702 nt of DNA from the NCBI RefSeq assembly GCF_003334385.1, contig NZ_QOWN01000148.1, one strand, 5' to 3'. This document shows, one piece after another, positions 1-702 of this stretch; position 1 is the first letter of the stretch, and each line of letters begins with the position of its first letter. The position numbers were made by a program, and so were the translations under genes. The notes below the pieces were generated by a model. The model was not told the origin of the DNA and ran no database searches. It was given only the letters and a program-made list of their open reading frames with translations. Source of the stretch: Escherichia coli (lineage in GTDB: Bacteria > Pseudomonadota > Gammaproteobacteria > Enterobacterales > Enterobacteriaceae).

Positions 1-667
1 CCGCCGTCGCGCTTTTAGTACTGATATATACATCGTGGATTTTGCGTCGCGCATGAGCCCAGCATCCTGCTTCCGTCAACGCGCCGCCTTCACGTTCGGC
101 ACTGAACAGCCGATCGTAACCATTAAACGCATCTGCCTGCAGGATACCCCGGAAGGGACGAAGGTGCTGCTCCGGATGTTTACCCTGATGATCCGGTGAG
201 TAGGCGAACCAGACCGCCGGAGGCTCTGGCGAACCGGCATTCCTGTCATCCCGGACATACGTCCAGATATATCCTGTTTTCGCCTTCTTCCTGCCCGGCG
301 CCAGTACCTTTACCGGTGTGTCGTCAGTGTGAAGCTTGAAGGTATTCATCACGTAACGGTACAGGGCATCATTCAGTGGCGTCATTAACTGGCAGCACTC
401 GTCAACCCAGTTGGAGAGTAATGCACGGCTCAGTTCGACGCCCTGGCGGGCAAAGATTTCACTCTGACGATACAATGGCAGGTGTTCGCAGTATTTTCCC
501 GTTAACACGCGGGCAAGTAACCCCGGGCCCGCGACACCACGCTCTATCGGACGGGACGGTGCTTCAACGATGCAGTCACATTTTGTACAGGCTTTTTTTA
601 CCCGTTCTGTGCGGATCACTTTCAGGGCTCTTCCGCAACCTGGGTGGAGATTTTCATGCCAGTGGAC
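1..667 (-). CDS. tnpC: IS66-family transposase (TnpC/ORF3-like DDE transposase), internal fragment; 3' end continues beyond the left window edge, 5' side closed by tandem stops at 668..673 (probably frameshifted)
   Basis: Reverse-strand translation in the frame with codons ending at + strand 667 gives 222 codons with no stop: [222 protein letters not shown]. Motifs I recognise as IS66-family signatures: Cys/His-rich zinc-finger-like segment (572..646), [10 protein letters not shown] (455..484), HTDDTPV with the first catalytic Asp (about 311..331), YVRDDRN (239..259), AVWFAYSPD (191..217), [10 protein letters not shown] with the second catalytic Asp (116..145), CWAHARRK (41..64). No in-frame ATG lies upstream within the window, which is why an ATG-to-stop ORF finder misses it. 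Confidence 0.85.
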
Positions 668-702
668 TCATTACCCTCTGCCTGAGTAGTTCAAATCCTG
701 CT
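1..702 (-). mobile_element. Interior of an IS66-family insertion sequence (transposase-coding portion only; no terminal inverted repeats in the window)
   Basis: The whole window is covered by an IS66-type transposase reading frame plus its upstream continuation in another frame. In IS66-family elements tnpC is the third and largest ORF, so the element ends and the tnpA/tnpB ORFs are expected outside the window (tnpA/tnpB to the right, the 3' IS end to the left). This is inference from family organisation, not seen in the sequence. Confidence 0.7.
1..702 (-). pseudogene. Probable frameshifted IS66-family transposase: upstream segment in a second reading frame (657..701, ...[15 protein letters not shown]) joined to the main frame (1..667) by an apparent 1-nt frame change near 668..673
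   Basis: The main frame is preceded by tandem TAA TGA stops (minus-strand sense; + strand 668..673). A second frame on the same strand is open from the right window edge to a TGA at 654..656 and ends ...LLRQRVM. Read together, ...LLRQRV / [12 protein letters not shown] resembles the conserved LPRE-x-VV-(x)n-C-x-C-G region that precedes the zinc finger in IS66-family transposases. That is the pattern expected from a 1-nt indel, not from a real gene boundary. Confidence 0.5.

Follow-up and report, generated by a model that had tools for sequence, protein, structure and literature searches.

Insertion sequences often make use of tandem -1 slippery sites, and in dnaX the gamma product is made by early termination after a -1 shift. 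The sites of IS1 (A6C), the IS3 family (A6G) and dnaX (A_AAA_AAG) are all A-rich heptamers positioned in the X_XXY_YYZ register. In E. coli, A_AAA_AAA is far less shift-prone than A_AAA_AAG (PMC5009743). Transcriptional slippage at 9A/9T runs has been described for some IS elements as well as for the Thermus dnaX gene (PMC1088944). The same study reports that selection against A/T runs, taken here as a proxy for slippage, is evident from about 9 nt, and that such runs are also hypermutable. IS66 is mentioned in neither PMC1088944 nor PMC5009743, a review-style passage of PMC3281130 gives trans-frame transposase production for IS1 and IS3 alone, and a literature search for recoding, frameshifting or transcriptional slippage in IS66 or tnpC found none. 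Homopolymer tracts are also met with in frameshift pseudogenes attributed to replication slippage, in which recurrent changes of plus or minus one base truncate the protein and some of the changes are inherited within a lineage.

The current study concerns a run of seven A residues within a tnpC fragment, located on a 702-nt stretch of E. coli DNA that was analysed as a whole (hereafter, the window). All coordinates refer to the + strand of the window, whereas the features themselves are read from the minus strand. The nearest relatives of the gene are the TnpC proteins of the ISEc23/ISEc43/ISEc47/IS682 group, which it resembles at 96-97% DNA identity over + 1-631 and whose domain order is the same as that of the intact allele of the window gene. 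In contrast to the members of this group, the window copy is an internal fragment cut by the element ISEc38 and contains a 6-bp in-frame deletion. As for the A7 run, it shares both its A-rich composition and its register with the sites of IS1, IS3 and dnaX, but the comparison made below places it among the homopolymer frameshift pseudogenes, even though the window copy itself retains the ancestral tract length.

Results

From its profile match and DNA identity, the gene in the window is recognizable as tnpC, the transposase gene of the IS66 family. Positions 1-625 (minus strand) hold an internal fragment corresponding to approximately residues 166-373 of 535, the frame being open throughout and the N-terminal ~165 codons being absent. 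The fragment scores 219 bits with NCBIfam NF033517, above the model's cut-off of 180 (E=1e-64), and covers positions 53-241 of the 387 in the profile. It is 96.9% identical in DNA to an intact E. coli tnpC and 99.8% identical to an intact allele found on the metagenome contig L082, and alignment to the best intact relatives is limited to + 1-631. Related DNA annotated as tnpC is present in ~5,000 E. coli records. In L082, the intact 535-aa protein contains all four expected Pfam domains in the order LZ_Tnp_IS66, zf-IS66 (residues 138-182), DDE_Tnp_IS66 (the DDE region spanning 195-484) and DDE_Tnp_IS66_C. The L082 element is free of ISEc38 and encodes ORFs of 141, 116 and 535 aa, the two shorter ones being located upstream of tnpC in a gene order that matches the tnpA/tnpB/tnpC annotation of another related locus (L002). 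Of this domain set, the window retains only portions of zf-IS66 and of the DDE domain. Its allele is marked by a single GCACCG unit at 557-562, where alignment reveals two units in the relatives (GCNCCNGCNCCG). This loss of one GCNCCN direct-repeat unit is a 6-bp in-frame deletion that converts EAPAPSRP to EAPSRP. It is not an inactivating change, as the intact 535-aa allele of L082 has it too. The deletion is thus a tolerated length variant lying just downstream of zf-IS66 and ahead of the DDE domain.

The 5' third of tnpC (~165 codons) is lost at a junction located at + 625/626. Beyond it, positions 626-702 (minus strand; 77 nt) belong to ISEc38, an element of the ISL3 family, and form its right end, identical to an annotated ISEc38 end and its junction in E. 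coli SK6988 (L001). Reading + from 626, the sequence begins with the ISEc38 terminal inverted repeat (GGCTCTTCCGCAACC...), while the last 9 codons of the ISEc38 transposase and its TAA occupy + 671-700. In SK6988, the ends of ISEc38 are GGTTCTTCCGCAAC (IRL) and GGCTCTTCCGCAAC (IRR), each flanked by CTGAAAGT. By comparison with that locus, the CTGAAAGT (gene sense) found at 618-625 of the window is probably one copy of the 8-bp ISEc38 target duplication, one junction being contained in the window. The window is matched at 100% identity by a second metagenome contig, L084, whose flanking ORFs match the ISL3 transposase model. The tnpC remnant of L084 is broken at its 3' end as well, where the intervening DNA contains an ORF for an IS110-family transposase, and no 5' third of the IS66 element could be located on the examined part of this contig. 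Consequently, the window forms one layer in a nest of insertion sequences, and the tnpC that it contains is dead. As the gene is already dead, the tract within it has no functional consequence there.

Several further observations were made at these loci. Between 1932 and 7594 of L084, tnpC is cut by ISEc38, which an IS4-family element of ~1.3 kb has in turn split. The stretch from the tnpC remnant to the 3' end of IS66 contains the IS110-family ORF, and an IS2-type ORF is located beyond. The longest remaining ORF of the gene starts from an internal GTG at 617-619 of the window (minus strand), 6 codons ahead of the run's first Lys codon, and has a length of 353 aa in L084 (3453-4514). Gene callers could report this ORF as a protein. 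In addition, the ISEc38 transposase frame continues into the frame of the GTG ORF, with TAA TGA alone between them. The same ISEc38/tnpC junction can be found in at least 11 E. coli records, 9 from the complete-genome set and 2 from the plasmid collection. Past its first ~300 nt, the tnpC of the window is ~88% identical to the ISEc38-cut copies, versus 97% to uninterrupted ones. The shared junction reflects either repeated targeting by ISEc38 or a single old insertion followed by recombination between IS66 copies. Downstream of the window, at ~3600-3900 of L084, differences from L082 are far more numerous than within it (99.8% identity), which suggests that the L084 tnpC is a mosaic or recombinant gene. 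The SK6988 copy, with its ISEc38 locus at 2360-4077 of L001, has a 1-nt insertion at ~4160-4170 (CGCCGCGAT versus CGCC-CGAT), ~60 nt downstream of the run, and this frameshift is situated away from any homopolymer.

The run itself (A7 on the minus strand, T7 on the + strand) was read directly from the window sequence at 593-599 and is the only homopolymer of at least 5 bases in the 702 nt. Across it, the minus-strand frame reads cgg gtA AAA AAA gcc tgt, or R-V-K-K-A-C, just as in the preliminary description, which had placed the T7 exactly here as a V-K-K string. In the numbering of the intact L082 allele, the A7 is composed of the third base of Val-174 together with Lys-175 and Lys-176, located within the zf-IS66 zinc finger between both CxxC pairs, upstream of the DDE domain and 26 nt into the part of tnpC that remains. 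It is the longest homopolymer in tnpC. Among 200 dinucleotide-preserving shuffles of the window, 13 contained an A7/T7 (mean, 0.10 per shuffle). The run is real and only weakly above chance.

Both alternative frames close after a short distance. The -1 frame, which is also the frame read by an A8 mutant, continues as G-K-K-S-L-Y-K-M before a TGA at 576-578, five codons (SLYKM) past the run. This had been correctly predicted in the preliminary description as KKSLYKM*. The same source had stated that the +1 frame meets TAA at once, which is literally true, as that triplet is the 'gTA Aaa' overlapping the upstream edge of the run, but it is misleading for any shift occurring within the run. A +1 shift or 1-nt deletion inside the tract skips the TAA and adds 15 further codons prior to a TAG at 544-546, in the frame read by an A6 mutant.

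The window's own allele is seldom encountered. A metagenome scan, performed with an allele-specific pattern in which the tract length was left free from 5 to 9, yielded three contigs from two assemblies (L082, L083 and L084), L083 differing from the window by one base. All three of these copies have A7. The full-length allele is absent from complete E. coli genomes and PLSDB plasmids, where the best match is 89% over the full length and 97% over the tnpC part; a one-genome-per-species scan gave a best match of 96% and no exact allele, and a scan of viral contigs did not find the allele. A total of 95 E. coli records among the complete genomes exceed or equal 99% identity to the window query. 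As all listed matches of full length or 90% coverage are at or below 97%, these probably match the ISEc38 end over a short length. Nearly identical tnpC genes were also observed on short contigs (L006, L008-L010, L012 and L017) binned as Rikenellaceae, Clostridia, Lachnospiraceae, Collinsella, Segatella and Bacillota MAGs, most likely as a result of binning contamination by Enterobacteriaceae mobile DNA.

To enumerate tract lengths among the E. coli copies, invariant flanks of 29 and 20 nt were joined by A6, A7 or A8 and compared with complete E. coli genomes. With queries this short, a single gap or mismatch brings the identity below 99%. Each record is counted once, at its best place, exact flanks are needed for a match, and different sequencing technologies are mixed in the totals. 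In the main subfamily, exact full-length matches were obtained from 2754 records for A7, 41 for A6 and 7 for A8, and a single A9 copy was read directly. A neighbouring A4 run served as the control: neither its shortened (A3) nor its lengthened (A5) form was found in any record. Each of these control queries also returned 2 matches at '>=99%', which were rejected as variants: since the top-ranked full-length rows stand at 98.2%, they must have partial coverage. In an IS682-like subfamily (IRTVRVKK), A6 occurs in 114 records, whereas the remaining 95-99% band amounts to ~1355 records, of which the rows listed carry A7. Length variation is evidently present and is concentrated at the A7 run, as had been anticipated in the preliminary description, where the tract was considered a likely site of indels and sequencing errors; these counts are not a mutation rate. 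Uniformity of tract length among copies, another point raised there, holds for all three contigs that carry the allele of the window and fails in the wider family.

Some of the variants are clearly real and inherited. Among the matches listed, the IS682-like A6 is found on six plasmids of ~90 kb, and in the A6 plasmid copy that was inspected (L085), which lies beside toxB, a separate 180-aa N-terminal ORF ends just past the tract. Two genome records of O104:H4, derived from different strains, share an A6 copy of ISEc43 at the same locus beside sigA. In SMS-3-5, an A6 copy of ISEc23 has this one base as its sole length difference from intact copies. Other calls have a different explanation: at least one A8, from a small plasmid assembly in which frameshifted genes abound, is probably an error, and some of the A6 and A8 calls are probably assembly errors as well. 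In the A8 copies, the annotation gives a truncated 'zinc-finger binding domain-containing protein', and at all variant loci that were inspected the gene is recorded as frameshifted or as broken up into short ORFs. The widespread A6 alleles (IS682-like and O104:H4) reside in copies that are also damaged in other ways, for instance by internal stops and truncations.

For the comparison with more distant relatives, 73 related loci were fetched from one-genome-per-species contigs, and those that could be aligned across the run were examined. Among these alignable loci, GTA AAA AAA is confined to relatives with at least 88% protein identity. At this level, the DNA around the run is nearly unchanged, and the 56 nt tested are identical in three copies, A7 included. 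Relatives at 68-79% identity mostly retain V/M-K-K, encoded as GTG AAA AAG, GTA AAA AAG or ATG AAA AAG, apart from one K-R (GTG AAA AGA) and one E-K-H. The GTA AAA AAG of Citrobacter braakii (L014) accordingly forms A_AAA_AAG. Below ~55% identity, a single K or R remains (e.g. REKF or RPKL). The A7 is thus found only in a young ISEc23/43/47/IS682-like group. The run is therefore not conserved as DNA, and these copies have it in common only through recent ancestry.

Several features relevant to recoding were examined as well. The register A_AAA_AAA places an X_XXY_YYZ slippery heptamer in the 0 frame. No stimulatory RNA structure was detected relative to shuffled sequences, either in the 93 nt downstream of the run (z = +0.55) or in 86 nt spanning it (z = +0.49), and direct reading located no SD-like AGGAGG ~10 nt upstream of the run. 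The nucleotide motif is not conserved beyond what the protein needs, the -1 ORF supplies no defined trans-frame product, as it ends after SLYKM, and the run has 7 nt rather than the ~9 nt associated with transcriptional slippage.

Discussion

The A7 tract is very probably an ordinary Val-Lys-Lys string that plays no signalling role, has a mutational consequence alone and, in the window, persists as a neutral relic in a dead gene. Under this scenario, GTA AAA AAA would have been inherited unchanged from a recent ancestor of the enterobacterial ISEc23/ISEc43/ISEc47/IS682 clade. Strand slippage during replication would occasionally add or drop one base at the A7, and any such change of length would cut the transposase short inside the zinc finger, before the DDE catalytic domain is reached. 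The tract of the window would have kept its ancestral length in a gene that has lost its 5' third to ISEc38 and, in the identical contig, its 3' end to an IS110-family element. The position and frame of the run, the identity and truncation of the gene, the codon differences among relatives and the length variants of other copies were observed directly, and from them we infer both that replication slippage is the cause of the variants and that the run has no role in translation. A consideration on the opposing side is the exact slippery phase of A_AAA_AAA, and a low, unselected level of slippage in an intact element may be compatible with everything that sequence analysis is able to address.

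The rival that survives best, though still highly unlikely, supposes that a programmed -1 frameshift or transcriptional slippage at the run yields a short, regulatory N-terminal TnpC, in the manner of IS1 InsA, IS911 OrfA or the gamma product of dnaX. The phase of the heptamer is right for tandem -1 slippage, the -1 stop arrives only 5 codons later, as it does almost immediately in dnaX, the C. braakii relative has an A_AAA_AAG, and the truncated ORFs of the A8 copies have been annotated as zinc-finger domain proteins. Given the dnaX gamma precedent, early termination alone cannot exclude a function, and the real argument is non-conservation: the heptamer is broken in most of the V-K-K relatives (GTG AAA AAG, ATG AAA AAG and GTG AAA AGA) and missing in distant IS66 elements. 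Moreover, the downstream structure is no better than that of shuffled sequences, the upstream SD-like element is missing, and A_AAA_AAA is in any case a comparatively poor shifter in E. coli (PMC5009743). In the window, the issue is moot, as the gene has no start. Unlike the sites of IS1, IS3 and dnaX, the tnpC run has neither an overlapping ORF to fuse nor a hairpin, and IS66 tnpC is a single uninterrupted ORF for which the literature searched offered no link to frameshifting. Similarly, while the 9A/9T slippage runs (PMC1088944) are likewise A homopolymers in IS transposase genes, the tnpC run is shorter at 7 nt, its 0 frame already encodes the full transposase, and its A8 and A9 variants are annotated as broken rather than as the functional form. 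The earlier claim that no productive frameshift product is encoded is therefore borne out by the lack of conservation, the unremarkable RNA fold and the termination of the -1 frame after 5 codons.

A more modest version of this proposal would restrict it to the intact elements of the clade, in which low-level -1 slippage might generate a ~181-aa TnpC that damps transposition. Such a product would consist of the leucine zipper and half of the zinc finger without the DDE domain. Taken jointly, low-level slippage and a product of this kind seem very improbable. Were it true, it would amount to a recently acquired, clade-specific version of the IS1 InsA/IS911 OrfA logic, in a family without any described case of recoding.

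It is similarly improbable that the tract length read in the window arose through an error of sequencing or assembly and that the true number of A residues differs. Homopolymers are a classic site of error, and at least one A8 relative stems from an assembly riddled with frameshifts. However, A7 is the length that leaves the frame open over the entire fragment, the same allele has A7 in three contigs from two metagenome assemblies, and 2754 E. coli records exhibit A7 between identical flanks. Least probable of all is a phase-variable contingency locus at which changes of length would switch the transposase reversibly between on and off, for despite the existence of A6, A7, A8 and A9 among the copies, the variants are rare (~1-2% of main-subfamily records) and look lineage-fixed rather than like a high-frequency reversible polymorphism (A7 in 2754 records versus 41 for A6 and 7 for A8), all inspected variant loci are annotated as frameshifted or split, and the presence of the widespread A6 (114 records; O104:H4) in copies with further lesions fits one-way decay.

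The overall significance of this A7 is very small. Nevertheless, it accounts for the IS66 tnpC genes that are recurrently called as 'frameshifted' and for the short ORFs labelled 'zinc-finger binding domain' in E. coli, including the ~90-kb plasmid copy beside toxB and the copy in O104:H4, and it marks a position at which long-read assemblies may miscall the length.
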